DNA of 64,000 bases from Escherichia coli (GCF_003018115.1 NZ_CP027457.1), one strand, 5' to 3'. Shown: positions 5,573-44,745, counted from the first letter of the stretch. Notes: generated from the letters alone by a model not told the origin. Translations and numbers: made by a program.

Positions 5573-6685
5573 ATGAAAGTTAAAGTACTGTCCCTCCTGG
5601 TCCCAGCTCTGCTGGTAGCAGGCGCAGCAAACGCTGCTGAAGTTTACAACAAAGACGGCAACAAATTAGATCTGTACGGTAAAGTAGACGGCCTGCACTA
5701 TTTCTCCGACAACGATAAGGTTGATGGCGACAAGACCTACATGCGTCTTGGCTTCAAAGGTGAAACTCAGGTTACTGACCAGCTGACCGGTTACGGCCAG
5801 TGGGAATATCAGATCCAGGGCAACGCTCCGGAAAGCGAAAACAACTCCTGGACCCGTGTGGCATTTGCTGGTCTGAAATTCCAGGACGTTGGTTCTTTCG
5901 ACTACGGTCGTAACTACGGCGTTGTTTACGACGTAACCTCTTGGACCGACGTGCTGCCAGAATTCGGTGGCGACACCTACGGTTCTGACAACTTCATGCA
6001 GCAGCGTGGTAACGGCTTCGCGACCTACCGTAACACCGACTTCTTCGGTCTGGTTGACGGCCTGAACTTTGCTGTTCAGTACCAGGGCAAAAACGGTAGC
6101 GTAAGCGGCGAAGGCATGACCAACAACGGTCGTGATGCTCTTGAGCAGAACGGTGACGGTGTTGGTGGTTCTATCACTTATGACATCGGTGAAGGCTTCA
6201 GCTTCGGTGGTGCGATCTCCAGCTCCAAACGCACCGCAGAGCAGAACAACAGTGCTCGTTTCATCGGTAATGGTGATCGTGCAGAAACCTACACTGGTGG
6301 TCTGAAATACGACGCTAACAACATCTACCTGGCTGCTCAGTACACCCAGACTTATAACGCAACTCTGGCTGGTGATTTAGGCTGGGCGAACAAAGCCCAG
6401 AACTTTGAAGTGGTTGCCCAGTATCAGTTCGACTTCGGTCTGCGTCCTTCTGTTGCTTACCTGCAGTCCAAAGGTAAAAATCTGAATGCCAACATCGCTG
6501 GTCGTACTTACGACGACGAAGATCTGGTGAAATATGTTGATGTTGGTGCTACCTACTACTTCAACAAAAACATGTCCACCTATGTTGATTACAAAATCAA
6601 CCTGCTGGACGACAATAACTTCACCCGCGCTGCTGGCATCAACACTGATGACATCGTAGCTCTGGGTCTGGTTTACCAGTTCTAA
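5573..6685 (+). CDS. ompC: Outer membrane porin OmpC (370 aa; non-K-12 loop allele)
   Basis: [45 protein letters not shown] ... ALGLVYQF, with signal peptide and C-terminal beta-barrel motif. Several surface-loop stretches differ from the K-12 protein as I remember it. Confidence 0.95.
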
Positions 6686-6705
6686 TCTCGATTGATATCG
6701 AACAA

Positions 6706-6727
6706 AGGGCCTGCGGGCCCTTTTTTC
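6706..6727 (+). terminator. Rho-independent terminator of ompC
   Basis: GGGCC-tgc-GGGCCC hairpin followed by TTTTTT. Confidence 0.75.
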
Positions 6728-6796
6728 ATTGTTTTCAGCGTACAAACTCAGTTTTTTGGTGTACTCTTGCGACCGTTCGCATGAGGATAATCACGT

Positions 6797-7852
6797 ATGG
6801 AAATAAGCTTTACCCGCGTGGCACTGCTGGCTGCCGCGCTCTTCTTTGTTGGTTGCGATCAAAAACCACAACCCGCCAAAACCCACGCTACTGAAGTTAC
6901 CGTTCTTGAAGGCAAAACCATGGGTACCTTCTGGCGTGCCAGCATCCCGGGCATTGATGCCAAACGCAGTGCCGAACTTAAAGAAAAGATTCAGACCCAG
7001 CTGGACGCCGACGATCAGCTGCTTTCGACCTATAAAAAAGATTCCGCGCTGATGCGCTTTAACGACTCGCAAAGTTTGTCGCCGTGGCCAGTAAGTGAAG
7101 CGATGGCCGAAATCGTCACTACCTCGCTGCGCATTGGCGCGAAGACCGATGGTGCGATGGATATTACCGTCGGGCCGCTGGTGAATCTGTGGGGCTTTGG
7201 CCCGGAACAACAGCCGGTTCAAATTCCGAGCCAGGAACAGATCGATGCGATGAAAGCCAAAACCGGCTTACAGCACCTGACGGTCATTAATCAGTCGCAT
7301 CAGCAATATCTGCAAAAAGACCTGCCGGATTTATATGTCGATCTCTCTACCGTCGGCGAAGGTTATGCGGCGGATCACCTGGCACGCTTGATGGAGCAGG
7401 AAGGGATTTCCCGCTATCTGGTGTCGGTGGGCGGCGCGCTGAACAGCCGTGGTATGAACGGTGAAGGCCTGCCGTGGCGGGTAGCGATTCAAAAACCAAC
7501 CGATAAAGAAAACGCAGTTCAGGCTGTGGTGGATATCAACGGTCATGGGATTAGCACCTCTGGCAGCTACCGTAACTATTACGAACTGGACGGCAAACGT
7601 CTTTCCCATGTTATCGATCCGCAAACCGGGCGTCCCATCGAACACAATCTGGTATCCGTGACGGTGATTGCTCCGACGGCGCTGGAAGCCGATGCCTGGG
7701 ATACTGGCTTGATGGTACTCGGGCCGGAGAAAGCCAAAGAGGTTGTTCGCCGGGAAGGGCTGGCGGTTTATATGATCACCAAAGAAGGCGATAGCTTTAA
7801 AACCTGGATGTCACCACAGTTTAAAAGCTTCCTTGTCAGCGAAAAAAATTAA
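6797..7852 (+). CDS. apbE: FAD:protein FMN transferase ApbE (lipoprotein)
   Basis: 351-aa ORF with lipobox (LFFVGC). Matches remembered ApbE. Sits between ompC and ada. Confidence 0.9.
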   Translation: MEISFTRVALLAAALFFVGCDQKPQPAKTHATEVTVLEGKTMGTFWRASIPGIDAKRSAELKEKIQTQLDADDQLLSTYKKDSALMRFNDSQSLSPWPVSEAMAEIVTTSLRIGAKTDGAMDITVGPLVNLWGFGPEQQPVQIPSQEQIDAMKAKTGLQHLTVINQSHQQYLQKDLPDLYVDLSTVGEGYAADHLARLMEQEGISRYLVSVGGALNSRGMNGEGLPWRVAIQKPTDKENAVQAVVDINGHGISTSGSYRNYYELDGKRLSHVIDPQTGRPIEHNLVSVTVIAPTALEADAWDTGLMVLGPEKAKEVVRREGLAVYMITKEGDSFKTWMSPQFKSFLVSEKN

Positions 7853-7925: not shown

Positions 7926-8990
7926 ATGAAAAACGCCACATGCTTAACTGACGATCAACGCTGGCAATCTGTCTTAGCCCGCGACCCGAATGCCGACGGC
8001 GAATTCGTTTTCGCCGTGCGCACCACAGGCATCTTTTGCCGTCCGTCTTGCCGCGCCAGACATGCCTTGCGGGAAAATGTCTCCTTCTACGCAAATGCCA
8101 GCGAGGCACTCGCCGCCGGATTTCGCCCCTGCAAACGTTGTCAGCCAGACAAAGCCAATGCCCAGCAACATCGGTTGGATAAAATCACCCACGCGTGTCG
8201 ACTGCTGGAACAGGAAACGCCTGTAACGTTGGAAGCCTTAGCCGACCAGGTGGCGATGAGTCCATTTTATCTACATCGGTTGTTTAAAGCGACTACCGGA
8301 ATGACGCCTAAAGCCTGGCAACAGGCCTGGCGCGCTCGCCGTTTGCGCGAATCGCTGGCGAAAGGGGAGAGCGTGACGACGTCTATTCTTAACGCCGGAT
8401 TCCCCGACAGCAGCAGTTACTACCGCAAAGCCGATGAAACGCTGGGCATGACGGCTAAACAATTCCGTCACGGTGGCGAAAATCTGGCGGTGCGTTACGC
8501 GCTGGCTGATTGTGCGCTGGGGCGTTGCCTGGTGGCAGAAAGCGAGCGGGGGATTTGCGCGATATTGCTGGGCGATGATGACGCGACACTAATCAGCGAG
8601 TTGCAGCAGATGTTTCCCGCTGCCGACAACGCGCCTGCCGATCTGACGTTTCAGCAACATGTGCGTGAAGTGATCGCCAGCCTCAATCAACGCGATACGC
8701 CGCTGACGTTACCGCTGGATATTCGCGGCACTGCTTTTCAGCAACAAGTCTGGCAGGCACTGCGCACGATACCTTGCGGTGAAACCGTCAGTTATCAGCA
8801 ACTGGCTAACGCCATCGGCAAACCGAAAGCGGTACGGGCCGTTGCAAGTGCCTGTGCCGCCAACAAGCTGGCTATCGTTATACCCTGTCATCGGGTAGTA
8901 CGCGATGATGGATCGCTTTCAGGTTACCGCTGGGGCGCGTCGCGCAAAGCGCAACTGCTGCGCCGCGAAGCTGAGAATGAGGAGAGGTAA
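7926..8990 (+). CDS. ada: Ada methyltransferase / transcriptional activator
   Basis: 354 aa. N-terminal Cys cluster (FCRPSCRAR..PCKRCQP), AraC-type HTH and C-terminal PCHRV active site. Confidence 0.95.
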   Translation: MKNATCLTDDQRWQSVLARDPNADGEFVFAVRTTGIFCRPSCRARHALRENVSFYANASEALAAGFRPCKRCQPDKANAQQHRLDKITHACRLLEQETPVTLEALADQVAMSPFYLHRLFKATTGMTPKAWQQAWRARRLRESLAKGESVTTSILNAGFPDSSSYYRKADETLGMTAKQFRHGGENLAVRYALADCALGRCLVAESERGICAILLGDDDATLISELQQMFPAADNAPADLTFQQHVREVIASLNQRDTPLTLPLDIRGTAFQQQVWQALRTIPCGETVSYQQLANAIGKPKAVRAVASACAANKLAIVIPCHRVVRDDGSLSGYRWGASRKAQLLRREAENEER

Positions 8991-31695: not shown

Positions 31696-33585
31696 TCATA
31701 GTGAATCGGTACCGCCTGATTTGACCATACCGCGATAATCCAGAGCTGCCACACCTGCATCAATACGGACTTTCCAGGCCACGCCGTCAACGATAAAACC
31801 TTCCTGCTGTTCAAGGTAAGGCTCGTCATTGCCATCAAGATAAGCCACCTCGATTGTGTCCGTTCCCTGTGCGGAAAGCATGTACCATTGTTTTTCGCTG
31901 ATATCATCAAGGCGGGGATCGACGATGATATCAAGTAGCTTGTGGTACGGGTTAAAGATCCCGCTGTTTTTATCAGCCCCGAAAGGTGCGGTTGAGTTAA
32001 TCATCTGCAACGCGCGATCTTCCAGTGCTGCCGGAACTAAAAGGAATTTAGGCGCAATATTCAGCACTTCGCCATTTTTGTCCTTCTGTGTGCGCATCAG
32101 GTGACGTGCTGCACTAAGTCCCGGTGTTGTCAGTCCTGCTTCAATCAGGTTGCTGTGTTTTTTGTCAAACAGCGTTATTCCGTCAGAAAGTTTTACGTTG
32201 CCTGTAAGCACCAGATTAACCAGATTTCCCACCGTTCTTGATGCTGCACGGCCCATAGCCATTGGCACCGTTGATAACTGATCAAGGTCATCATTGATTA
32301 TCGCCTGGCGGGTAATGCTGAAAATATTCCCGTAAGTAGCCAGCGCGATGGGTTCACCGCGATCGCTGGTGGTGATGTATTTATATTCTGCCCCTTCCGG
32401 CACTTTGTTTAACGTTGAGAAGCCATTCATACCAACGCGGCGGGCTTCCCGGAAGTTTGAAAGGGAACCTTTTTTCGTCCACTGGCGGAATGTTTCGCCG
32501 CTGTGCTCCCAGCCTGCAAGCACTGATTTTTCAGCGCCACCAGCAAGGATATCGGTAAAATCGCTGCTGCTGTGGGTGAATGCCGCGTTTACTATCTGCG
32601 AGCGTGTGCCGTAGCTGCCCGTGCTTATACCACGATGGGTTAATGATGCCTGTGCCATATCGAAAAGGCTCATCATGGCGTAAGGATTACCGCGTTCGGC
32701 CCGTTCGTGACCAAGACGCGCATTAAGCCCCTGACGCATGGCATCGCCGGTTATATTGCCGTTATCCGTGTACGCGTAGTAAAGATTTGCGGGGGTGGTT
32801 TTGTTTGTTGGCGTTGATTCTTTACCCATAGCGAGTAAAAGGCGTTCGCGTGCATTCTCAACGCTACATTCTGAATCCGCAAGACAACTTATAGCCAGGT
32901 CGTTATATCTTCCGTTGAAGGTGCCAAACAATTCACGGATTCCGTTAAGTCGTTCCTGTTCGCCACTGCCAGTTTTCTGGCTGATCATGCTTTTAATTTT
33001 TTCCGGCATATTTGAAAAATCTCCGATTCGTTTTGATTCAATTCGGGCCATTGCTGTAATCGCGGGTATAACCTCATCTGCGAAGCCGTTAGCCTTACAC
33101 TCATTGCCATCCATCCAGGTTTCCGCCTCCATCATTGAGGTGATCTCCTGTTTGCTCCTGCCCGTTCTTCCGGCATAGGTTTCTGCCATCGTGTCGCCCA
33201 GCTTGTCCATCAGATCAGCAAAGCGGCGAACGTCGCCCGACACTCCGGCAGTAACACCACGGGGGGCATGTATCATCATCATCGCGTTTTCAGGCATAAC
33301 GATGTGATCTCCACACATGGCAATAAACGACGCCATAGAAGCCGCCATGCCTTCAATGTGTACGATTTTTTTTGCCGGATGATTTTTCAGGGCGTTATAG
33401 ATAGCCAGCCCTTCAAAGATGTCGCCACCAGGTGAATGAATGCTCAGATGGATTTCAGACGCATTACCACACGCGTTGATCTCGTCAGTAAGTGCCGATG
33501 CTTTTACACCGTACCCGCCGATCTCGTCATAAATGCGCACATAGACAACATCTGCCATAGCCTTAATGGAAAACCATGTTTTCAT
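31696..33585 (-). CDS. ClpP-family prohead protease fused to phage major capsid protein (629 aa)
   Basis: N-terminus: IHSPGGDIFEGLAIYNAL..GMAASMASFIAMCGD..MMMIHAPRG (ClpP/S14-like Ser and His motifs). The C-terminal ~330 aa resembles HK97-fold/Mu gpT-like capsid proteins (..ALATYGNIFSITRQAIINDDL..WYMLSAQGTDTIEVAYLDG..). Assignment is from memory of the family, not from a search. Confidence 0.75.
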   Translation of the reverse strand: MKTWFSIKAMADVVYVRIYDEIGGYGVKASALTDEINACGNASEIHLSIHSPGGDIFEGLAIYNALKNHPAKKIVHIEGMAASMASFIAMCGDHIVMPENAMMMIHAPRGVTAGVSGDVRRFADLMDKLGDTMAETYAGRTGRSKQEITSMMEAETWMDGNECKANGFADEVIPAITAMARIESKRIGDFSNMPEKIKSMISQKTGSGEQERLNGIRELFGTFNGRYNDLAISCLADSECSVENARERLLLAMGKESTPTNKTTPANLYYAYTDNGNITGDAMRQGLNARLGHERAERGNPYAMMSLFDMAQASLTHRGISTGSYGTRSQIVNAAFTHSSSDFTDILAGGAEKSVLAGWEHSGETFRQWTKKGSLSNFREARRVGMNGFSTLNKVPEGAEYKYITTSDRGEPIALATYGNIFSITRQAIINDDLDQLSTVPMAMGRAASRTVGNLVNLVLTGNVKLSDGITLFDKKHSNLIEAGLTTPGLSAARHLMRTQKDKNGEVLNIAPKFLLVPAALEDRALQMINSTAPFGADKNSGIFNPYHKLLDIIVDPRLDDISEKQWYMLSAQGTDTIEVAYLDGNDEPYLEQQEGFIVDGVAWKVRIDAGVAALDYRGMVKSGGTDSL

Positions 33586-34772: not shown

Positions 34773-34958
34773 TTTTACACCTCACTTTTTAAAGCGTCTC
34801 GCTTCGTCTCACTTGATATTTTTTGATGCTTTATGTGTGTGTTTCATAAGGATTTTTTTACTCCTCACTTTTGAGCATGTATACAGGTGAGAAAGTGAGT
34901 AATCGTGTTAATATTTTGTAAAAACCTCACCATTACTCACTTTTGCTACTCACTTTTT
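34758..34958. repeat. Iteron cluster (CTCACTTTT family) flanking an AT-rich core: candidate island replication origin
   Basis: CTCACT(T) copies at 34758, 34768, 34781, 34808, 34864, 34936 and 34949; CTCACC at 34926; inverted GGTGAG/AAAGTGAG at 34886-34899. The AT-rich stretch is 34815-34862. Lies immediately 3' of the replication ATPase gene. Confidence 0.6.
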
Positions 34959-36366
34959 ACAGTGGTCCTACATCATCACCATCAATGTAAATCACGGCGT
35001 CTTTTTCCAGTTTGGCTAACCATCGCCGCATATTTTTCACGTCATACCCAAGCCGTTTCATGTCATCACGTAACAGCGGGATCGTGCACTTGTCGCCGTT
35101 CTGTGTGCGTGAACGGATGCACCCCCATAGTGCGGTATGGTTTTCCGTCTTGTTGCCTGCCTCCTCGATGCGTTCCAGTTCAACGGGAGGGCGCGGCTTA
35201 TCCACCACCACCAGCGACGTGATTAACTCCCCGTCAGCGTCGGTAAACAGCTCCACCACGCGTAAGTCATATGCGGCTTCTTTGAGTTCCTCCGCGTCCT
35301 TCATTTTGGTGCATGAGATAACCAGCGCTTCGCTTCCTGCGTCCTCCCTGCGTATCCGGTATTCAGCATCCAGTGATGCACGAAATGCACTGGAACCGCG
35401 CGCGCCTTTCGTCTCATCCTTGCCGGAATGGTGAACCACCAGCACCGTGGCCCCTGTGCGTCGTTTCAGTTCGTCACAACCACGGATAAACGCCCCCATA
35501 TCACGGGAATCATTTTCATCATTCCCACCAAAGCAACGCGCCAGCGTATCCAGAATAATCATGCGTACAGGTTTACCCGTTTCCCGCTCCACCTGACGGG
35601 CAGCGATAACCATTTCATCAACATCAAGCGGGACCGCCGGAAAGATGGGACGGTTTACCAGATACAGATTTTTCACCTGCTCACCGTGCACAACCTCCCA
35701 GGCTTTTACACGACGCGGAACGCCGATACCGCCTTCACCAACCACATAGAGAACAGCGCCATGCGCCACCCTGCGGCCTCCCCACTGGCGGCCCGTGGAA
35801 ACGTGACACGCCCACGATCCGGCAAGGAATGATTTATAGGAACCGCTCGCCCCGTATATGCTGCAAAGCGACGATGCCGGAATAATCCCCTTTACCACGT
35901 AATCAAGCTGTGTGTCGTATCCGGTAGATCCAACGCTCATCGGTAGCGTGGTTTTTCGCTGGGGGATTTTTTTCATGACCAGGCTTTCCCCGCGTTCCCA
36001 TGCCTCCCTAAGCCGTGGAAGCTGGTCGCTCCATTCCTCCAGCAATTCGAAATTTTCAGAAAGTAGCCGCGCCTCCTGGACTCCGGCGATCGCCAGTTTC
36101 GTGGCGATGGTTAACAGCTGCGGCTCTTCAATATTTCCGGCGCGTATCACCGTCGCCCTGTATCGCCCATCATCAACAATCTGGAGGTTATCCAGTTTGC
36201 TTAACTGATAACGCCCCAGATAAACGGGAGGGACTGGATCGCCTGCTTTTTTGGCCTGTGCAATGATGTAATGCTCTGCGAATGAGTGAGCATCAATACC
36301 CGCAAAAATAATCGCATCGGTGTATTTATCTTTCGGTAATCGTTTTACGTTCGGTGCCAGTTTCAT
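34957..36366 (-). CDS. Replication ATPase, RepA/AAA_25 (RecA-like helicase) family, 469 aa
   Basis: Walker A GASGSYKS, Walker B RMIILDT and VVHHSGKD motif, typical of RepA-like helicases of plasmids and satellites. N-terminal ~140 aa unassigned. No zinc-finger or Toprim primase motifs seen. Confidence 0.7.
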   Translation of the reverse strand: MKLAPNVKRLPKDKYTDAIIFAGIDAHSFAEHYIIAQAKKAGDPVPPVYLGRYQLSKLDNLQIVDDGRYRATVIRAGNIEEPQLLTIATKLAIAGVQEARLLSENFELLEEWSDQLPRLREAWERGESLVMKKIPQRKTTLPMSVGSTGYDTQLDYVVKGIIPASSLCSIYGASGSYKSFLAGSWACHVSTGRQWGGRRVAHGAVLYVVGEGGIGVPRRVKAWEVVHGEQVKNLYLVNRPIFPAVPLDVDEMVIAARQVERETGKPVRMIILDTLARCFGGNDENDSRDMGAFIRGCDELKRRTGATVLVVHHSGKDETKGARGSSAFRASLDAEYRIRREDAGSEALVISCTKMKDAEELKEAAYDLRVVELFTDADGELITSLVVVDKPRPPVELERIEEAGNKTENHTALWGCIRSRTQNGDKCTIPLLRDDMKRLGYDVKNMRRWLAKLEKDAVIYIDGDDVGPL

Positions 36367-37356: not shown

Positions 37357-37675
37357 AAAGCATCCCCTGAATATTCGTGTTAATCATTCCGGCACGTTTT
37401 GTGATTTCCTGTAATGATTCCCTTGTGGCGACAATTGCTTCATCTGGTAAGTGGTAATTACACACCACGCGACCTTTATCCACATTGACCAGTAGCTGCC
37501 CTGTGAATTTCTCACGAAACTGAATGCGGTTAAGGTCAGTAAGTGACAGATTAATAATGGCGCACCTCCTGACGAATACGGGCGGCAAATACAGCAACAC
37601 AACCGGACGGGCAACGGTTACGCGCTTCGCGTTCCGTCCAGGCGGTGACGTGGATGATTTGAGATTCTCCGGCAC
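37346..37675 (-). CDS. Hypothetical protein, start uncertain (109 aa from GTG 37675; ~71 aa if initiated at ATT 37558 after AGGAGG)
   Basis: Long open frame overlapping the icd-like ORF out of frame. A strong AGGAGG (37570-37565) has no canonical start codon at proper spacing, only ATT. Confidence 0.4.
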   Translation of the reverse strand: MPENLKSSTSPPGRNAKRVTVARPVVLLYLPPVFVRRCAIINLSLTDLNRIQFREKFTGQLLVNVDKGRVVCNYHLPDEAIVATRESLQEITKRAGMINTNIQGMLYAQ

Positions 37676-37748
37676 TCAGGGCCAGAAAACGCCACACAAA
37701 GGCAGTTTGTGTGTGTACAAGGTGTGGTATATGATTTACGGCAACCAT
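37551..37748 (-). CDS. Small protein (65 aa), tentatively Icd-like (host cell division inhibitor family)
   Basis: GAGGAG SD 5 nt before the ATG. First gene of the leftward operon. The pattern FVWRFLALS..IIHVTAWTEREARNR..VFAARIRQEV resembles my recollection of Icd-like proteins of P4-like elements. Unverified. Confidence 0.5.
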   Translation of the reverse strand: MVAVNHIPHLVHTQTAFVWRFLALSAGESQIIHVTAWTEREARNRCPSGCVAVFAARIRQEVRHY

Positions 37749-37812
37749 AACGGCTCCTCGTTTACGTTGTTGGTTAGAAGCCCCGTTACTGCTCCTACAG
37801 TGCGGGGTTTCG
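37742..37812 (+). ncRNA. Candidate small RNA A (cis-antisense to the RBS/start of the icd-like gene)
   Basis: Promoter-like TTGTGT (37707-12) -17 bp- TATGAT (37730-35). Hairpin GCCCCG-17 nt-CGGGG (37780-37807) followed by TTTCGTCGTTTC. A homologous unit lies at 38453-38565. Confidence 0.35.
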
Positions 37813-37837
37813 TCGTTTCAACACCTTGCCTAAATAA

Positions 37838-37891
37838 GGTGTTGAACACCAATTTAAATCGAGGTGTTAAACACGTCAAGTGTTGAACACT
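37838..37891. promoter_or_regulatory. Three palindromic operators (GGTGTTGAACACC family) overlapping divergent promoter-like hexamers
   Basis: 37838-50 GGTGTTgAACACC (perfect); 37863-75 GGTGTTaAACACG; 37879-91 AGTGTTgAACACT (perfect). Minus strand: TTGACG (37879-74) -17- TAAATT (37856-51). Plus strand: TTGAAC (37883-88) -17- CATACT. Confidence 0.6.
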
Positions 37892-37940
37892 TATTTTTTT
37901 TCCTGCATACTGCATTTGTTTTTTATGAGGGGTGCTCAAC

Positions 37941-38120
37941 ATGGCGACAAAAGCAGTAAACGCAAAATCACAAACAGTTGCGGCAAGGGTTCCACATGAA
38001 GTTATGAACAATGTTGAGGCGGTAAAAATGCCCGGCGAAAGTACAGGGCAGTTTGTTACAGCTGCATTAAAGCGGGAAGTTGAATACCGCCAGCGTCGCA
38101 AGGCCAAAGAATCAGAATAA
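37941..38120 (+). CDS. Ribbon-helix-helix DNA-binding protein 1 (59 aa)
   Basis: ATG preceded by GAGGGG. TVAARVPHEVMNNVEAV..STGQFVTAALKREV fits a beta-strand/helix/helix (CopG/Arc/MetJ) layout. Confidence 0.65.
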   Translation: MATKAVNAKSQTVAARVPHEVMNNVEAVKMPGESTGQFVTAALKREVEYRQRRKAKESE

Positions 38121-38177
38121 TCACTATCAGCGCCGTGGTGTGAGGTACTACGGCGCATTGCTTTACAGGGCAGTATC

Positions 38178-38405
38178 ATGACCAACAACACACTATCACC
38201 AATACAAGACACGCAAACGCAAGATGATGAAATCATCCGGCAAAGGCAGTCAGAAGCCTGCGCCAGACTTGAGGAAGAACTAACCAGAACAAAAATACCA
38301 CCACCAGCGCCGCGCTTAGTGCCACCAGAAAAATTTGCCCTTGAAGATTTTGTCGATAAATACCCACGGCGGCTTAAATCCGGCAAAAACCGACCGCCTG
38401 GCTGA
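38178..38405 (+). CDS. Small protein (75 aa), paralog of 38856..39059
   Basis: MTNN.. start. Shares the motif F.L(E/D)(D/E)F(V/L).KY.R with the second copy. Confidence 0.5.
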   Translation: MTNNTLSPIQDTQTQDDEIIRQRQSEACARLEEELTRTKIPPPAPRLVPPEKFALEDFVDKYPRRLKSGKNRPPG

Positions 38406-38487
38406 GTGCACAAAACCGAACTATGAAACGGATTATTCCGTTTCCGGGGCGTTTGTGTGTGTATAAAGAGTAAGCTATGCTCTTTTA

Positions 38488-38565
38488 TAGCCATAATCGT
38501 TACCTCAATTAATGGTTTGGTTAGACGCCCCGTATGTGAGCCACCACTGCGGGGCGTTGTTTTTT
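38488..38565 (+). ncRNA. Candidate small RNA B (homolog of RNA A with a strong intrinsic terminator)
   Basis: TTGTGT (38453-58) -17 bp- TATGCT (38476-81). TTGGTTAGA, then stem ACGCCCCG (38525-32) / CGGGGCGT (38550-57), then TTGTTTTTTG. Confidence 0.4.
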
Positions 38566-38583
38566 GTATAACGGTAAGTACAA

Positions 38584-38624
38584 TGGTAATTACCATGTAA
38601 CTATAGTAATTAAGGGTAATTACC
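38584..38624. promoter_or_regulatory. Palindromic operators GGTAATTACC (x2, plus a degenerate middle copy) at the RHH-2 start
   Basis: TGGTAATTACCA at 38584-95, AGTAATTAAG at 38605-14, GGTAATTACC at 38615-24, abutting the ATG at 38625. Confidence 0.55.
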
Positions 38625-38798
38625 ATGTCAACACCATTGGAAAAGCGATCGCCTCCATACCAAATGCGGCTACCAGAAGAATTCAGAGCACAACTTGAAG
38701 AGGCAGCGAAAGCAGACGGTGACACTTCTTTAGCCACCTGGATCAAGCGAGTACTCCGAAAAGAATTACAGCAACGCGGTATTGAACCCAAAGGATAA
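38625..38798 (+). CDS. Ribbon-helix-helix (Arc-like) DNA-binding protein 2 (57 aa; below the ORF-track cutoff)
   Basis: Manual translation gives MSTPLEKRSPPYQMRLPEEFRAQLEEAAKADGDTSLATWIKRVLRKELQQRGIEPKG. The MRLPEE..L..AA...G.S....I pattern is typical of Arc/MetJ-type repressors. AAGGG SD lies 8 nt upstream. Confidence 0.6.
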   Translation: MSTPLEKRSPPYQMRLPEEFRAQLEEAAKADGDTSLATWIKRVLRKELQQRGIEPKG

Positions 38799-38855
38799 AA
38801 AACATCAGCGCCGTGGCGTGAGGAACTCCGGCGCATTGCTTTACAGGTACACACA

Positions 38856-39059
38856 ATGACCAACAAAGAATCAACCAATACACCATCGCAAAAAACGAAC
38901 AGAGAGCACGAAAATATGGCGTTCGAGCATGAATCAGAAAGATTCGCACCATGCGCTTTTGTCCTTGATGAGTTTCTAAAAAAATATTCACGTTCTGAAC
39001 GGATGAAAATGGCAGCACAATACGGCCCCAACAAGCAAGATAATTGCCCACCAGCCTGA
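38856..39059 (+). CDS. Small protein (67 aa), paralog of 38178..38405
   Basis: MTNK.. start with FVLDEFLKKYSRSERMK motif. Preceded by the conserved 44-nt hairpin block. Confidence 0.5.
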   Translation: MTNKESTNTPSQKTNREHENMAFEHESERFAPCAFVLDEFLKKYSRSERMKMAAQYGPNKQDNCPPA

Positions 39060-39127
39060 TCGCGGTTATCATGCCCGGGCTTATGATTGTTGACACATAC
39101 GGCGCAGCGGGTTAATTGTTCAGAAAG

Positions 39128-39156
39128 GTGGCTCCATTTCGGGGCCGCTTTTTTTA
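39128..39156 (+). terminator. Rho-independent terminator ending the rightward RHH operon
   Basis: GGCTCC-atttc-GGGGCC stem, then GC and TTTTTTT. Confidence 0.6.
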
Positions 39157-39180
39157 TGTTCATCATTTGCCCTATATATG

Positions 39181-39387
39181 TTAAGCGGTCGTTCCGCGCG
39201 CTTCTTGTTCGCGTTCTTTCATCCATGCGATTACGTCTTCCTCATACCATCCGCGACGGCGCAAACCGACACGAAAACCCTGCGGGAATTCTCCGGCGTT
39301 GATCATGCTTTGCAGCGTGCTGTCTGCCTTAATGTGGATAAGTTTTTTTACTTCCTGGCGAAAGATGACTTTTTTGATTGCTTCCAT
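39181..39387 (-). CDS. AlpA-family phage regulatory protein / excisionase-like (68 aa)
   Basis: The pattern ..LIHIKADSTLQSMINAGEFPQGFRVGLRRRGWYEEDVIAWM.. matches the MerR-like wHTH AlpA/Xis family signature (R.v.W...dV..W). Confidence 0.8.
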   Translation of the reverse strand: MEAIKKVIFRQEVKKLIHIKADSTLQSMINAGEFPQGFRVGLRRRGWYEEDVIAWMKEREQEARGTTA

Positions 39388-39406: not shown

Positions 39407-39488
39407 CCGGTGTATTCCGGTGAGAAATACGGTAAATCATCGGATGCAGGGAAAAACAGTACTCACCGTTTTTAAACGGTATACACCG
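39407..39488. promoter_or_regulatory. Nested inverted repeat across the alpA promoter region
   Basis: CCGGTGTAT (39407-15) and CCGGTGAG (39417-24) pair with CTCACCG (39462-68) and ATACACCG (39481-88). Confidence 0.55.
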
Positions 39489-39520
39489 TTTTTTATATTG
39501 ATGATTTGAAAGGGATTTAT

Positions 39521-39883: not shown

Positions 39884-41125
39884 CTAAACGGCTCGGATAC
39901 CCCTTTTACCACTGGCGAGGGTTACGCCCGTCGCCGCAGCCTCGACAAATTCGCCCCACCAGCGCATAAGCACGATGCGTTTTTCTATGTAGTTGCTCCG
40001 GTTGTATGCCCGTCTGACTTCGTTGGTGTCGACGTGGGCAAGTGCGGCCTCTATTACGTCCGGCTCAAAGCCTTCTTCGTTCGCTGCTGTGCTGAATATG
40101 GCGCGTAATCCATGAGACACCAGCACGCCAGCGAATCCCATGCGTCGTAATGCTGCGTTAGCGGTCTGGCTGTTCATCGGCTGCTGTGGGTCTTTCAGAC
40201 TCGGGAAAACATAATCGCGGTGGTGGCTGATTGGTTTCATAGCCTCCAGCACTGCCATAGCCTGGTCACAAAGCGGGATAACGTGGTCGCGGCGCATCTT
40301 CATGCGTCCGGCGGGTATGGTCCAGCGTTGCGCTTCCATGTCGATTTCTTCCCAGCGTGCCGACGATGCTTCAACGGGACGGGTTACGGTCAGTAACTGC
40401 CATTCAATCAGTAATCTGGTCTGCCGTTCTGTTGCCGATACTGATAAAGCCTGCATAAGCTCCGGCAGCTGTTCGGGGCGGATTGTTGGCATATGTTTTT
40501 TTACAGGGGAGGGGAACGCCTTACGCACATTCATAGCCGGATTGGCATCAATCATCCCACTATTGGCGGCGTAATCCATTACCTCATTTATACGCTGTAA
40601 AACTCGCTTGAGCGTTTCCAGGTTGCCACGTTCCTTGATGGGGGTAAGCACCTCAACGAACCTGCGAGCGGTCAGGGTGTCTATTGGCGTGTTGCCGATG
40701 AACGGGAATACATATTTTTCCAGCGATCGCCAGATGTCTTTAATCGTATTGGGGGCCAGATTCTGGCTGATTTTCACCTGGTACCATGCTGTTGCCACAT
40801 TTTCGAACGTGTTCCCTTGTCTTCGGGCCTCTGTCTCTCTTTTTTGCCTCTCGTGGTCCTGCGGGTCAGTTCCGGCACGAATTAACGCCCTGTACTCGCT
40901 ACGGCGTTTTCTGGCATCAGCCAGGGAAACATCATCAAGCGATCCAAAACTCAGCAATATTCTTTTTTTGTCCGATGGTCGGTAGTAGGAAAATCTCCAG
41001 AGTTTTGATCCGGACGGTTTGATCAGGAGAAAAAGCCCTCCGCCGTCCTGTAGGGTGTATTCCTTTTCTGCTGGTCTGGCTGCTTTGATCTGTACTGTGG
41101 TTAATGGGGGTGTTTTTCTCGCCAT
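39884..41125 (-). CDS. Tyrosine integrase, P4-type (413 aa)
   Basis: N-terminal DUF4102-like arm-binding region (LTTVQIKAARPAEKEYTLQDGGGLFLLIKPSGSKLWRF). C-terminal catalytic motifs (HGLRAIFST..AHVDTNEVRRAYNRSNY). Adjacent to the tRNA. Confidence 0.92.
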   Translation of the reverse strand: MARKTPPLTTVQIKAARPAEKEYTLQDGGGLFLLIKPSGSKLWRFSYYRPSDKKRILLSFGSLDDVSLADARKRRSEYRALIRAGTDPQDHERQKRETEARRQGNTFENVATAWYQVKISQNLAPNTIKDIWRSLEKYVFPFIGNTPIDTLTARRFVEVLTPIKERGNLETLKRVLQRINEVMDYAANSGMIDANPAMNVRKAFPSPVKKHMPTIRPEQLPELMQALSVSATERQTRLLIEWQLLTVTRPVEASSARWEEIDMEAQRWTIPAGRMKMRRDHVIPLCDQAMAVLEAMKPISHHRDYVFPSLKDPQQPMNSQTANAALRRMGFAGVLVSHGLRAIFSTAANEEGFEPDVIEAALAHVDTNEVRRAYNRSNYIEKRIVLMRWWGEFVEAAATGVTLASGKRGIRAV

Positions 41126-41336: not shown

Positions 41337-41358
41337 GGCGATTTGGTCGGCACGAGAG
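41337..41358. repeat. tRNA-proximal att repeat
   Basis: GGCGATTTGGTCGGCACGAGAG. Pairs with 30496-30517. Confidence 0.75.
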
Positions 41359-41420
41359 GATTTGAACCTCCGACCCCCGACACCCCATGACGGTGCGCTA
41401 CCAGGCTGCGCTACGTGCCG
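41344..41420 (-). tRNA. proL: tRNA-Pro (anticodon GGG)
   Basis: Reverse complement is CGGCACGTAGCGCAGCCTGGTAGCGCACCGTCATGGGGTGTCGGGGGTCGGAGGTTCAAATCCTCTCGTGCCGACCA (77 nt, encoded CCA, T-loop GGTTCAAATCC, U-GGG-G anticodon loop). Confidence 0.93.
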
Positions 41421-43683: not shown

Positions 43684-44691
43684 ATGAGTCTGGATATCAA
43701 CCAGATTGCTCTGCACCAGCTTATCAAGCGTGATGAGCAGAACCTTGAGCTGGTGTTGCGCGATTCATTGCTGGAACCGACAGAAACCGTCGTTGAGATG
43801 GTGGCAGAACTGCATCGGGTCTATAGCGCCAAAAATAAAGCTTACGGCTTGTTTAGCGAAGAGAGTGAACTGGCGCAGACGCTGCGCTTACAGCGTCAGG
43901 GCGAAGAGGACTTTCTGGCATTTAGCCGCGCGGCAACCGGTCGCCTGCGTGACGAATTAGCGAAATATCCTTTTGCTGACGGTGGATTCGTGCTGTTTTG
44001 CCACTACCGTTATCTGGCGGTGGAGTATCTGCTGGTGGCAGTCCTGAGCAACCTGAGCAGTATGCGCGTTAACGAAAATCTCGACATCAACCCAACCCAT
44101 TATCTTGATATCAATCATGCGGATATTGTTGCGCGTATCGATTTAACCGAATGGGAAACCAATCCAGAGTCCACCCGCTATCTCACTTTCCTGAAAGGGC
44201 GAGTAGGGCGCAAAGTGGCGGATTTCTTTATGGATTTCCTCGGGGCCAGCGAAGGGTTAAACGCGAAAGCGCAAAACCGTGGGCTGTTGCAAGCGGTTGA
44301 TGATTTCACTGCCGAAGCACAACTGGATAAAGCAGAGCGACAGAACGTGCGCCAGCAGGTTTATAGCTACTGTAATGAGCAGCTGCAGGCAGGCGAAGAG
44401 ATCGAACTGGAATCGCTGTCGAAAGAGCTGGCAGGCGTCAGCGAAGTGAGCTTCACGGAGTTTGCGGCTGAAAAAGGCTACGAACTGGAAGAGAGCTTCC
44501 CGGCAGACCGTAGCACACTGCGTCAGTTGACGAAGTTTGCCGGTAGCGGCGGTGGCTTGACTATTAATTTTGATGCGATGCTGTTGGGCGAACGGATTTT
44601 CTGGGATCCGGCGACCGATACCCTGACTATTAAAGGCACGCCGCCGAATTTGCGCGATCAATTGCAGCGCCGGACGTCCGGCGGCAATTAA
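43684..44691 (+). CDS. yejK: Nucleoid-associated protein YejK (NdpA)
   Basis: 335 aa, [30 protein letters not shown].. Confidence 0.93.
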
Positions 44692-44702
44692 TCGGTTTTG
44701 TG

Positions 44703-44745
44703 TTCTGAATGCCAGATGCGGCGTGAACGCCTTATCTGGCCTGCA
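44703..44745. repeat. REP element
   Basis: GCCAGATGCGGCGTGAACGCCTTATCTGGCCTGC. Confidence 0.75.

Follow-up and report, generated by a model that had tools for sequence, protein, structure and literature searches.

Two stacked ribbon-helix-helix repressor cassettes opposite a long open frame in the putative on/off region of an Escherichia coli phage satellite

Which element switches a Gram-negative phage satellite on and off is the question raised by an island of about 10 kb that sits between yejO and tRNA-Pro/yejM in Escherichia coli (GCF_003018115.1, NZ_CP027457.1). We analyzed a stretch of 64,000 nucleotides (nt) of this genome (hereafter the window, with positions counted from its first letter), focusing on the interval between alpA, the gene for an excisionase/activator, and an icd/kil-like gene. 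Gram-negative phage-inducible chromosomal islands (PICIs) have been mapped as transcribed one way, with AlpA as their helper-induced activator in E. coli and a global repressor described as 'unclear' (PMC6092414), and one survey presents the region between alpA and the replication genes as a dynamic "Bro zone" (PMC10111431). The literature that we searched on Gram-negative PICIs and capsid-forming PICIs (cf-PICIs) describes no ribbon-helix-helix (RHH) or other repressor. In the island studied here, the alpA-icd interval appears to be the immunity or commitment region, which controls the on/off state. As we read its sequence, two heterologous RHH switches stand in series and their repressor-gated early promoters feed one operon as an OR gate, a reading to which we assign a probability of roughly 60%.

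Two cassettes in series

The interval holds two cassettes, at about 37700-38405 (unit A) and 38445-39060 (unit B), with an identical order of parts: a leftward promoter within its own palindromic operators, a divergent RHH repressor gene, a 44-nt block and the gene for a small helical protein. A preliminary description of this DNA had listed six parts per unit (promoter, hairpin RNA, operators, RHH repressor, 44-nt hairpin block and a small protein starting MTN), and all six were located where it had put them. Pairwise alignment and a repeat search showed that the units share a 22-nt segment (TTTGTGTGTGTA), a 49-nt hairpin segment of the form TTGGTTAGA(A/C)GCCCCG...CGGGG (71% identity) and a 75-nt segment (80% identity) in which the 44-nt block, identical at 41 of 44 positions, is embedded. 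Because the similarity extends beyond the 44-nt block, the observation of a repeated cassette stands. What had been overlooked is that each unit has a strong leftward promoter, that its first two parts lie antisense to the start of an icd-like gene (unit A) or to a 5' remnant of icd (unit B), and that the opposite strand is open throughout the interval.

RHH-A (37941-38120, + strand; 59 aa) is a putative Arc-like repressor of the YlcI/YnfO family, identified by its NCBIfam score (NF041551, 59.7 bits for a cut-off of 30), PHROG and profile matches and codon pattern. RHH-B (38625-38798, + strand; 57 aa), with 20.1 bits against the same NCBIfam model, is by that criterion a non-member; it matches the PHROG 'Arc-like repressor' (E = 4.9e-7), and its match to Pfam Arc (E = 0.0079, 16.5 bits) is under the 20.4 cut-off. 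The two proteins had been described as RHH-like, with which we agree, and as dissimilar in sequence; an alignment of A-type and B-type proteins revealed a shared pattern of β-strand, helix, G-x-S/T turn and helix, as in distant homologues rather than unrelated proteins. A profile of 15 cassette RHH proteins had P22 Arc, aligned over the full length, as its top match among solved structures (E = 0.0056), the next matches being CopG and, weakly, MazE (E = 0.28-0.36). Substitutions in the RHH genes of relatives followed the order position 2 < position 1 < position 3 when read on the + strand (e.g., 1279/1951/3049), which indicates that these genes are genuinely coding on that strand. The RHH-B type also occurs as the sole cassette beside a full first gene in other islands.

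Each unit has its own palindromes, as had been proposed. Operator set A (37839-37890) comprises GTGTTGAACAC at 37839-37849, GTGTTAAACAC at 37864-37874 and GTGTTGAACAC again at 37880-37890, and operator set B (38585-38624) comprises two copies of GGTAATTACC, at 38585-38594 and 38615-38624. All three matches to GTGTTRAACAC in the window are found here (0.05 expected; 0 of 100 shuffles reached three), as are both matches to GGTAATTACC (0.01 expected; 0 of 100 shuffles reached two). A consensus scan of the interval called only two leftward σ70-type promoters, one per unit and inside that unit's operators. The predicted early promoter of unit A, P_E-A (37851-37879, - strand; TTGACG-17-TAAATT, 9/12), is overlapped by operators A, and that of unit B, P_E-B (38603-38631, - strand; TTGACA-17-TACTAT, 10/12), has one operator in its spacer and another just downstream; the -35 TTGAC is conserved across all cassette types. 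A candidate rightward promoter for RHH-A (37883-37911, + strand; TTGAAC-17-CATACT after a T-run) has its -35 within the third operator. It fell under the scan threshold, and an equivalent T-run with TATACT is conserved in other cassettes. Elsewhere, TGGTAATTAC (37452-37461), in a small - strand gene directly downstream of icd, agrees with the RHH-B operator at 9 of 10 positions and could be a distal operator or a chance match.

About 60 distinct relatives repeat the same layout (hairpin, palindrome, -10, palindrome, -35 TTGAC, T-run with TATACT, half-site and RHH gene). They include at least 10 RHH types, each with its own palindrome at equal positions (e.g., GTGTAAGACAC, TGTGCGCACA, CTGGATTCCAG and GGTGACCAC), and the predicted β-strand residues vary between types, changing together with the adjacent palindromes. 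These type-specific palindromes bear out the earlier notion of modular cassettes of different specificity between conserved flanks, and the pattern is that expected of swapped repressor/operator specificities. We infer that RHH-A and RHH-B bind the adjacent palindromes, each repressing its own P_E.

The relatives include single-unit and double-unit variants, as had been anticipated. An IMG/VR island whose alpA and icd are 98-99% identical to those of the window carries a single cassette (RHH-A and a 67-aa MTN protein) and differs by one clean indel of 678 nt, whose ends lie in the two 44-nt blocks; because 678 is 3 × 226, the open frame of the opposite strand (the bridge frame, described below) is preserved. 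Other doubles have a cassette spacing of 741 or 573 nt, both multiples of 3, and a continuous frame, or a spacing of 685 or 740 nt. These last two are not multiples of 3, and the bridge is split into two open reading frames (ORFs) that overlap at the cassette-B start. All doubles carry an identical junction after the 75-aa MTN gene (38406-38452, + strand; a GAAACGGATTATTCCGTTTC hairpin plus CGGGGCG) and together comprise at least 8 RHH combinations. Among 5,426 complete E. coli genomes, 1,412 have some part of the region, 110 have the double junction and 44 have this exact pair. In-situ duplication is ruled out by the heterologous RHH/operator cores and by the junction common to all doubles, and the tandem duplication of the preliminary description gives way to two heterologous cassettes stacked via recombination at conserved segments. 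The double form appears to be a stack built once by recombination and reshuffled later. One double (locus L151) has a second cassette without the icd remnant and antisense RNA, the RHH-B operators lying directly past the junction hairpin, in what looks like a deletion between two CGGGGCGTT repeats.

Such an origin also suits an explanation in which cassette B is an inert passenger, stacked by unequal or homologous recombination at the 44-nt block, and only cassette A matters. The clean 678-nt indel at the blocks, the one junction that points to a single origin of all doubles, their minority status (110 of 5,426 genomes, compared with the 1,412 that contain part of the region), the reduction of the leftward gene of cassette B to a 15-codon icd remnant and the loss of the second antisense RNA in L151 are all in its favor. 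Yet the promoter (10/12), both operators, the Shine-Dalgarno sequence and AUG, the antisense RNA (83.2 bits) and the ORFs of cassette B are intact, so that it looks functional; the RHH combinations, at least 8 in number, arose while the junction was kept; the - strand frame past the cassette-B AUG remains open to the icd start; and an unrepressed 10/12 promoter aimed at icd would not be neutral. We consider an inert cassette B rather improbable.

A predicted antisense RNA over the icd start

The first gene past the leftward early promoter is the icd/kil-like gene, a putative cell-division-inhibitor gene (37551-37748, - strand; 65 aa), which has its ATG at 37748 and matches NCBIfam phage_ICD_like (E = 5.2e-18). 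Unit B has a 15-codon 5' remnant of icd, MAIKEHSLLFIHTQT, which starts with the ATG at 38494 and corresponds to MVAVNHIPHLVHTQT in unit A. The TTGTGT-17-TATG(A/C)T elements of the preliminary description are present opposite these starts as candidate promoters with a conserved hexamer, in the TATGAT form at 37707-37735 (+ strand), within the first codons of icd, and in the TATGCT form at 38453-38481 (+ strand). Each precedes a predicted antisense RNA: RNA A, of about 77 nt (37739-37819, + strand; 76.6 bits, fold z = -4.4), and RNA B (38485-38566, + strand; 83.2 bits, z = -4.7), whose hairpin, with a T6 tail, doubles as the terminator of the RHH-A/MTN-A operon. The scores are those of a covariance model built from relatives, which matches exactly these two sites in the window. 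What had been taken for a free-standing promoter and hairpin RNA is better read as a predicted cis-antisense RNA over the Icd/Kil-like translation start.

In stem-loop 1, the start-codon complement GCCA pairs with UGGU of the conserved TTGGTTAGA, and single-sequence folds of both window copies place an anti-Shine-Dalgarno CCUC in its loop; stem-loop 2 is a terminator-type hairpin. RNAalifold analysis of 32 diverse sequences yielded a 13-bp terminator-type stem and the closing GCCA/UGGU helix, with compensatory changes at 9 of 13 stem pairs and 95.4% of cells canonical. The covariation reached 0.40, compared with 0.195 in shuffles (0 of 500 reached the observed value). The same pairs include 88 G·U against 2 A·C, only 79.5% are canonical in the - strand reading, and the + strand fold is more stable than the - strand fold in 77 of 77 sequences. 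Together, the covariation and the G·U asymmetry show that the structure is selected in an RNA of the + strand, opposite the AUG and its Shine-Dalgarno sequence, which agrees with the original identification of a hairpin RNA. The same asymmetry rules out the hairpin as a structure in the 5' untranslated region of the leftward mRNA. All 14 genuine upstream types, although they encode unrelated N-termini, have a TAnnnT hexamer whose end is 4-10 nt (9-10 nt in 13) from the start-codon complement that follows it; among control windows it was present in 5 of 48.

Unit A and every single-cassette island lack an upstream + strand gene to terminate, which is difficult to reconcile with an alternative in which the hairpin element is a plain intrinsic terminator or insulator for the + strand, without a promoter of its own, that ends the RHH-A/MTN-A operon and blocks stray antisense transcription. 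This alternative is consistent with a terminator-like structure selected on the + strand, with the position of the unit B copy 120 nt past the MTN-A stop and its T6 tail, and with the weak -35 of the proposed promoter. It does not account for a -10-like hexamer that keeps nearly the same distance to the start-codon complement in all 14 coding contexts, unrelated as these are, for the pairing of that complement with conserved UUGG in a stem-loop 1 that exposes the anti-Shine-Dalgarno sequence, or for the constant location of the element over the start of a first gene, Pseudomonas and Burkholderiales elements included. A role in termination only is, in our view, unlikely, and a regulatory antisense RNA is the likelier reading. 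In structure, strand and position the predicted RNAs agree with cis-antisense translational repressors of the sar/FinP/Sok type, and a promoter is supported only by the conserved -10-like hexamer.

Rfam scans gave no match near any gathering score (15 kb at E <= 1; 1.5 kb at E <= 10), indicating that the RNAs are not C4, isrK or sar, and their family appears to be absent from Rfam. The covariance model had no match in P4. Copies outside its seed set are those of a Pseudomonas prophage and a Burkholderiales element; the matches outside Enterobacteriaceae (L174:7356-7438, +, and L184:7081-7163, -) score 56-57 bits. In the Pseudomonas capeferrum prophage, terS and terL flank an HNH endonuclease gene whose start is covered by the copy; in a Burkholderiales metagenome-assembled genome, the copy covers the start of an ArdC-like gene that precedes radC. 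In mobile elements generally, the element may serve as a 'first-gene guard'. A 15-base motif scan of the genome collection returned mostly chance matches; the genuine ones among the matches listed were Shigella, one Pseudomonas and one Burkholderiales locus.

Small MTN proteins and an open frame on the opposite strand

The 44-nt blocks separate the RHH genes from those of the MTN proteins (block A, 38126-38169, + strand; block B, 38804-38847, + strand). Block A comprises a GCGCCG..CGGCGC hairpin with GAGG in its loop, followed by CATTGCTTTACAGG; it is terminator-like in the scan and is the crossover point of the single/double indel. Placed between RHH and MTN, the block may terminate transcription in part. 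MTN-A (38178-38405, + strand; 75 aa) and MTN-B (38856-39059, + strand; 67 aa; phrog_21027, E = 2.4e-12) have the common F.L(D/E)(D/E)F..KY.R motif reported for them and, by alignment, belong to a family of four subtypes sharing (K/R)FA..F.L(E/D).F(L/V).K(Y/H), whose homologues are hypothetical E. coli proteins only. A model of MTN-A consists of a long helix (residues 9-38) and a short one (residues 55-61), with a mean predicted local distance difference test score (pLDDT) of 75, and is too simple for a fold search. The two proteins are more similar in the + frame (44) than in the - frame (29), and MTN is probably a real + strand gene. The RHH-B/MTN-B operon ends in a predicted intrinsic terminator (39122-39158, + strand; z = -3.7, hairpin then T7) that lies opposite the first codons of the bridge ORF. 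The 14-mer ATTGCCCACCAGCC (39043-39056), or a near copy, is present at or just past the MTN 3' end in nearly all cassette types and is conserved whether inside or outside the MTN frame; in the bridge ORF it reads ..AAGGQ.., and it may act as a site in DNA or in RNA.

A small ORF downstream of an RHH gene, autoregulatory palindromes and the weak profile match to MazE antitoxins (E = 0.28-0.36) would also fit a type II toxin-antitoxin pair or similar addiction or defense cargo. We regard such a module as very improbable, because MTN-A and MTN-B had no toxin or defense match in Pfam, NCBIfam or PADLOC, MTN is predicted to be hydrophilic with a single long helix, the operators overlap a promoter aimed away from the pair and into the icd/replication operon, and the position equals that of the P4 immunity region.

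Antisense to both cassettes runs the bridge ORF (ORFx; 37736-39166, - strand; 476 codons). Its likely start is the ATGATG at 39166, 14 nt past the alpA stop, and its stop codon begins 10 nt after the A of the icd ATG, so that it overlaps icd out of frame. A nested ORF in the same frame runs from the cassette-B AUG (38494-38492) to the icd start (37736-38494, - strand). The - strand frame has no internal stop from 37736 to 39241, whereas the other two - strand frames have 27 and 39. Synonymous-codon shuffles that kept the four + strand proteins and shuffled the intergenic bases (3000 trials) gave 14.3±3.4 stops in the bridge frame and never fewer than 2; most of the expected stops fall within the "non-coding" switch DNA. 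Every related locus that we examined (about 75 distinct) likewise has this frame open, over 200-765 codons. Among 74 distinct loci, it runs in frame into the first gene in 47 and stops from -10 to +30 nt of the AUG in 22, and a bridge that reads past the first-gene AUG is always in frame with it. Furthermore, all 72 RHH genes and all 81 MTN genes lie in a single antisense phase, sharing wobble positions with the bridge frame. No Pfam, PHROG or PADLOC family matched the bridge ORF. The frame appears to be under selection for openness rather than for sequence.

Openness of the - strand frame, the 247-aa - strand ORF and zero + strand genes called by the Prokaryotic Genome Annotation Pipeline (PGAP) in a related island and the one-directional mapping of Gram-negative PICIs (PMC6092414) could make the long ORF the sole real gene, a 'Bro-zone' protein with the + strand ORFs as its shadows, which is scarcely credible given the + strand codon pattern of the RHH genes, their matches to independent families and to Arc, the covariation of their residues with the adjacent palindromes, the greater + frame than - frame protein similarity of both gene pairs and a Cys/Ser/Arg-rich - strand ORF without a family. 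RefSeq itself is inconsistent, with + strand genes called in one island and only a 247-aa - strand ORF in another. The latter is L002, a capsid-encoding island of a cattle E. coli, where only the bridge ORF (6175-6918) is annotated and the RHH gene (6284-6475, + strand) and MTN gene (6518-6706, + strand) are present but unannotated. Such annotation choices may explain the one-way transcription maps of these satellites.

Considering two RHH switches in series, we propose that in quiescence each repressor would close its own P_E and autoregulate. Downstream of each P_E, a leader Shine-Dalgarno sequence and AUG, where a leftward frame starts, would be covered by the cis-antisense RNA of about 77 nt, which would block translation of the toxic Icd/Kil-like leader and hence coupled read-through to the replication genes. 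Induction would follow when either repressor is lifted or when transcription induced by a helper reaches the interval from alpA. With no stop in the - strand frame between alpA and icd, ribosomes could then trail RNA polymerase through 1.4 kb of otherwise untranslated antisense RNA, and this translated read-through would shield the transcript from Rho and bring ribosomes to icd, while convergent transcription would silence the repressor operons. P_E-B would read through cassette A into icd, so that the loss of either repressor would turn the operon on, as in an OR gate. This scheme is built on what the sequences show, namely how the parts are arranged, which families they belong to, on which strand the RNA structure lies, that the open frame is selected and that the double arose by recombination; repressor-operator binding, promoter activity, antisense-RNA action, an anti-polarity role and helper specificity are the steps it would add.

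Several observations weigh against this scheme. The antisense promoter has a poor -35 (3/6 consensus) and neither copy was called by the consensus scan, so that its activity is a prediction; in RNA A the U-tract of the terminator tail is interrupted (UUUCGUCGUUUC). The bridge stops 76-130 nt upstream of the next AUG in 5 of the 74 loci, and its translation is Cys/Ser/Arg-rich with a junk-like composition; with such a composition and no family, the case that it is translated only as a track is argued from its conserved openness. The MTN codon pattern (position 1 ≈ position 2 < position 3) leaves the coding strand ambiguous and less certain than for RHH. Covariation sought in variants of the 44-nt hairpin gave no compensatory changes, and we rejected it as a covarying RNA structure; its extreme conservation may partly reflect use as a recombination joint or crossover. 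Lastly, an inverted repeat in icd codons 12-20 (37693-37713, - strand; CACACAAA-N5-TTTGTGTG then GCGTTTTCTG) was flagged as terminator-like, but its hairpin is no more stable than shuffles (z = 0.09), which leaves an intrinsic attenuator in icd as a rejected, weak lead. This repeat includes the '-35 TTGTGT' of the candidate antisense promoter, and its stem is invariant.

A more inclusive version of the proposal remains tentative, and we think it less probable than not by some distance. It holds jointly that an ORF of irrelevant sequence is kept as a ribosome track from alpA to kil/icd (for anti-polarity and coupling) with the switch opposite it in a wobble-sharing frame, that the OR gate has two inputs and answers two helper signals, and that the antisense RNAs belong to an undescribed family present in several proteobacterial orders, always guarding the first gene of an operon.

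The satellite and related immunity regions

The gene order of the island is int-alpA-[cassettes]-icd-like-DUF4222-RepA helicase-PerC-protease/capsid fusion, adjoining tRNA-Pro (41347-41420). The integrase gene int (39884-41125, - strand) was identified by a gene search and from the annotation of a 92%-identical RefSeq island. At the upstream end of the leftward operon, alpA (39181-39387, - strand) encodes a putative Vis/AlpA-type excisionase/activator, with a PHROG 'excisionase and transcriptional regulator' match (1.4e-7), a weak Pfam Phage_AlpA match and the label of helix-turn-helix (HTH) regulator in the same RefSeq island. Domain searches and the RefSeq annotation also identified the RepA-family helicase (34957-36366, - strand) and a 629-aa prohead-protease/capsid fusion (31696-33585, - strand); further - strand genes are small ORFs, the DUF4222 gene and PerC. 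As in PICIs, int and alpA lie at one end, followed by replication (helicase) and late/capsid genes, next to a specific tRNA-Pro site. One-way transcription without a divergent repressor is not what we found, as the stretch from alpA to icd contains four + strand genes that have promoter-like and terminator-like signals of their own. The gene content bears out the satellite setting first suggested, and the island appears to be a Gram-negative PICI/P4-type (cf-PICI-like) phage satellite. A tblastn search of a phage collection returned one record for the Icd-like protein and none for RHH-A, and thus no link to a helper phage. Upstream of alpA (39408-39493), direct repeats (AAACAGTACTCACCGTTTTT / AAACGGTATACACCGTTTTT) and inverted repeats (CGGTGTATTCCGGTGAGAAA / TTTTTAAACGGTATACACCG) are candidate binding sites for AlpA or a helper factor at the alpA promoter. 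Outside the island, at 44659-44741 on both strands, a sub-threshold Rfam naRNA4 match (38.4 bits for a gathering score of 59.5) is probably a repetitive extragenic palindromic (REP)-type repeat.

The preliminary description knew of no satellite switch with this architecture. Rather than being unprecedented, the interval combines features of P22 immI, P1 immI and P4 vis-eta/kil. P22 immI encodes the RHH repressors Mnt and Arc and has the promoter Pant and the antisense RNA sar over the ant ribosome site. The interval resembles it in having a small Arc-family RHH gene divergent from a strong promoter overlapped by its palindromic operator, and a predicted cis-antisense RNA of about 70 nt that starts inside the 5' end of the controlled gene and covers its ribosome-binding site. 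It differs in that there is no ant gene, the target being Icd/Kil-like, the repressor operon is antisense in an open frame, two cassettes are stacked and the RNA has no Rfam sar match. In phages P1 and P7, translation of icd licenses transcription of the downstream genes. Their immI region (c4-icd-ant) is similar to the interval in that the translation start of an Icd-family leader ('Icd-like' in NCBIfam in both cases) is the known or, here, the predicted target of a small antisense RNA. C4, however, comes from the same strand upstream and has limited complementarity, whereas the RNA predicted here is cis-encoded and fully complementary, and the interval has neither an Rfam C4 match nor an ant gene.

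The P4 immunity region, which comprises the nested genes vis-eta/kil, P_LE and the CI RNA, shares with the interval an alpA/vis gene followed by a long ORF that runs from its 3' end to an Icd-like (Kil) domain, at the same position and with partial homology; an early promoter lies inside the long ORF, which in most relatives shares its reading frame with the Kil start. The P4 frame is open at 8168-8821, from inside vis (orf88) to the end of kil, and the C-terminus of Eta/Kil matches phage_ICD_like (NF033153) at 1.2e-20, compared with 5.2e-18 for the window gene. BLASTP of P4 Kil against the window Icd-like protein gave no alignment, so that this homology is drawn from the shared hidden Markov model only. 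In the published model, translation of eta, coupled to that of the alpA homologue, prevents termination in P4 (PMC10111431). Taken with the open P4 frame and the shared Icd-like model, this leads us to read the bridge ORF as a probable counterpart of eta. By contrast, P4 immunity depends on the CI RNA (related to C4/isrK), which the Rfam scans (15 kb and 1.5 kb) did not detect here; P4 has no repressor genes on the opposite strand; and the window bridge ORF overlaps icd out of frame instead of being fused to it. In L137 and its relatives, the bridge ORF has about 130 extra codons between the cassette and the Icd-like domain (Pfam Phage_ASH, 9.1e-11), which include ..HASFFVS.., also found in the P4 frame over the cI region. 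This stretch is probably a translated CI/C4-type immunity-RNA region, in which case an RHH cassette and an immunity RNA may occur together in some satellites.

A further likeness is to Stl (Rpr) of Staphylococcus aureus pathogenicity islands (SaPIs) and other Gram-positive PICIs, a satellite repressor divergent from the excision/replication operon and a natural target of helper antirepressors; the Stl proteins are large and HTH, whereas the window repressors are RHH. By analogy, P22 immI would be the closest functional counterpart, and P4 vis-eta/kil and P1 c4-icd-ant the closest by position and homology. What appears to be new relative to these designs is a protein cassette in place of the CI/C4 RNA, a cis-antisense RNA outside Rfam, a switch lying antisense in an eta-like frame and tandem stacking.

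For the biology of these satellites, a widespread and modular divergent Arc-type switch would stand against the published picture of Gram-negative PICIs without an identified master repressor. Parts of the region are present in about a quarter of complete E. coli genomes, and the switch may have stayed hidden because gene callers often annotate the long ORF of the opposite strand. The locus is also an unusually clear example of long antisense overlap, one strand apparently being selected for protein sequence and the other only for translatability. Its repressors and antisense RNAs are concrete candidates for the missing immunity and helper-sensing step of Gram-negative PICIs, and the stacked form would be a natural two-input version, useful for the study of satellite helper specificity.

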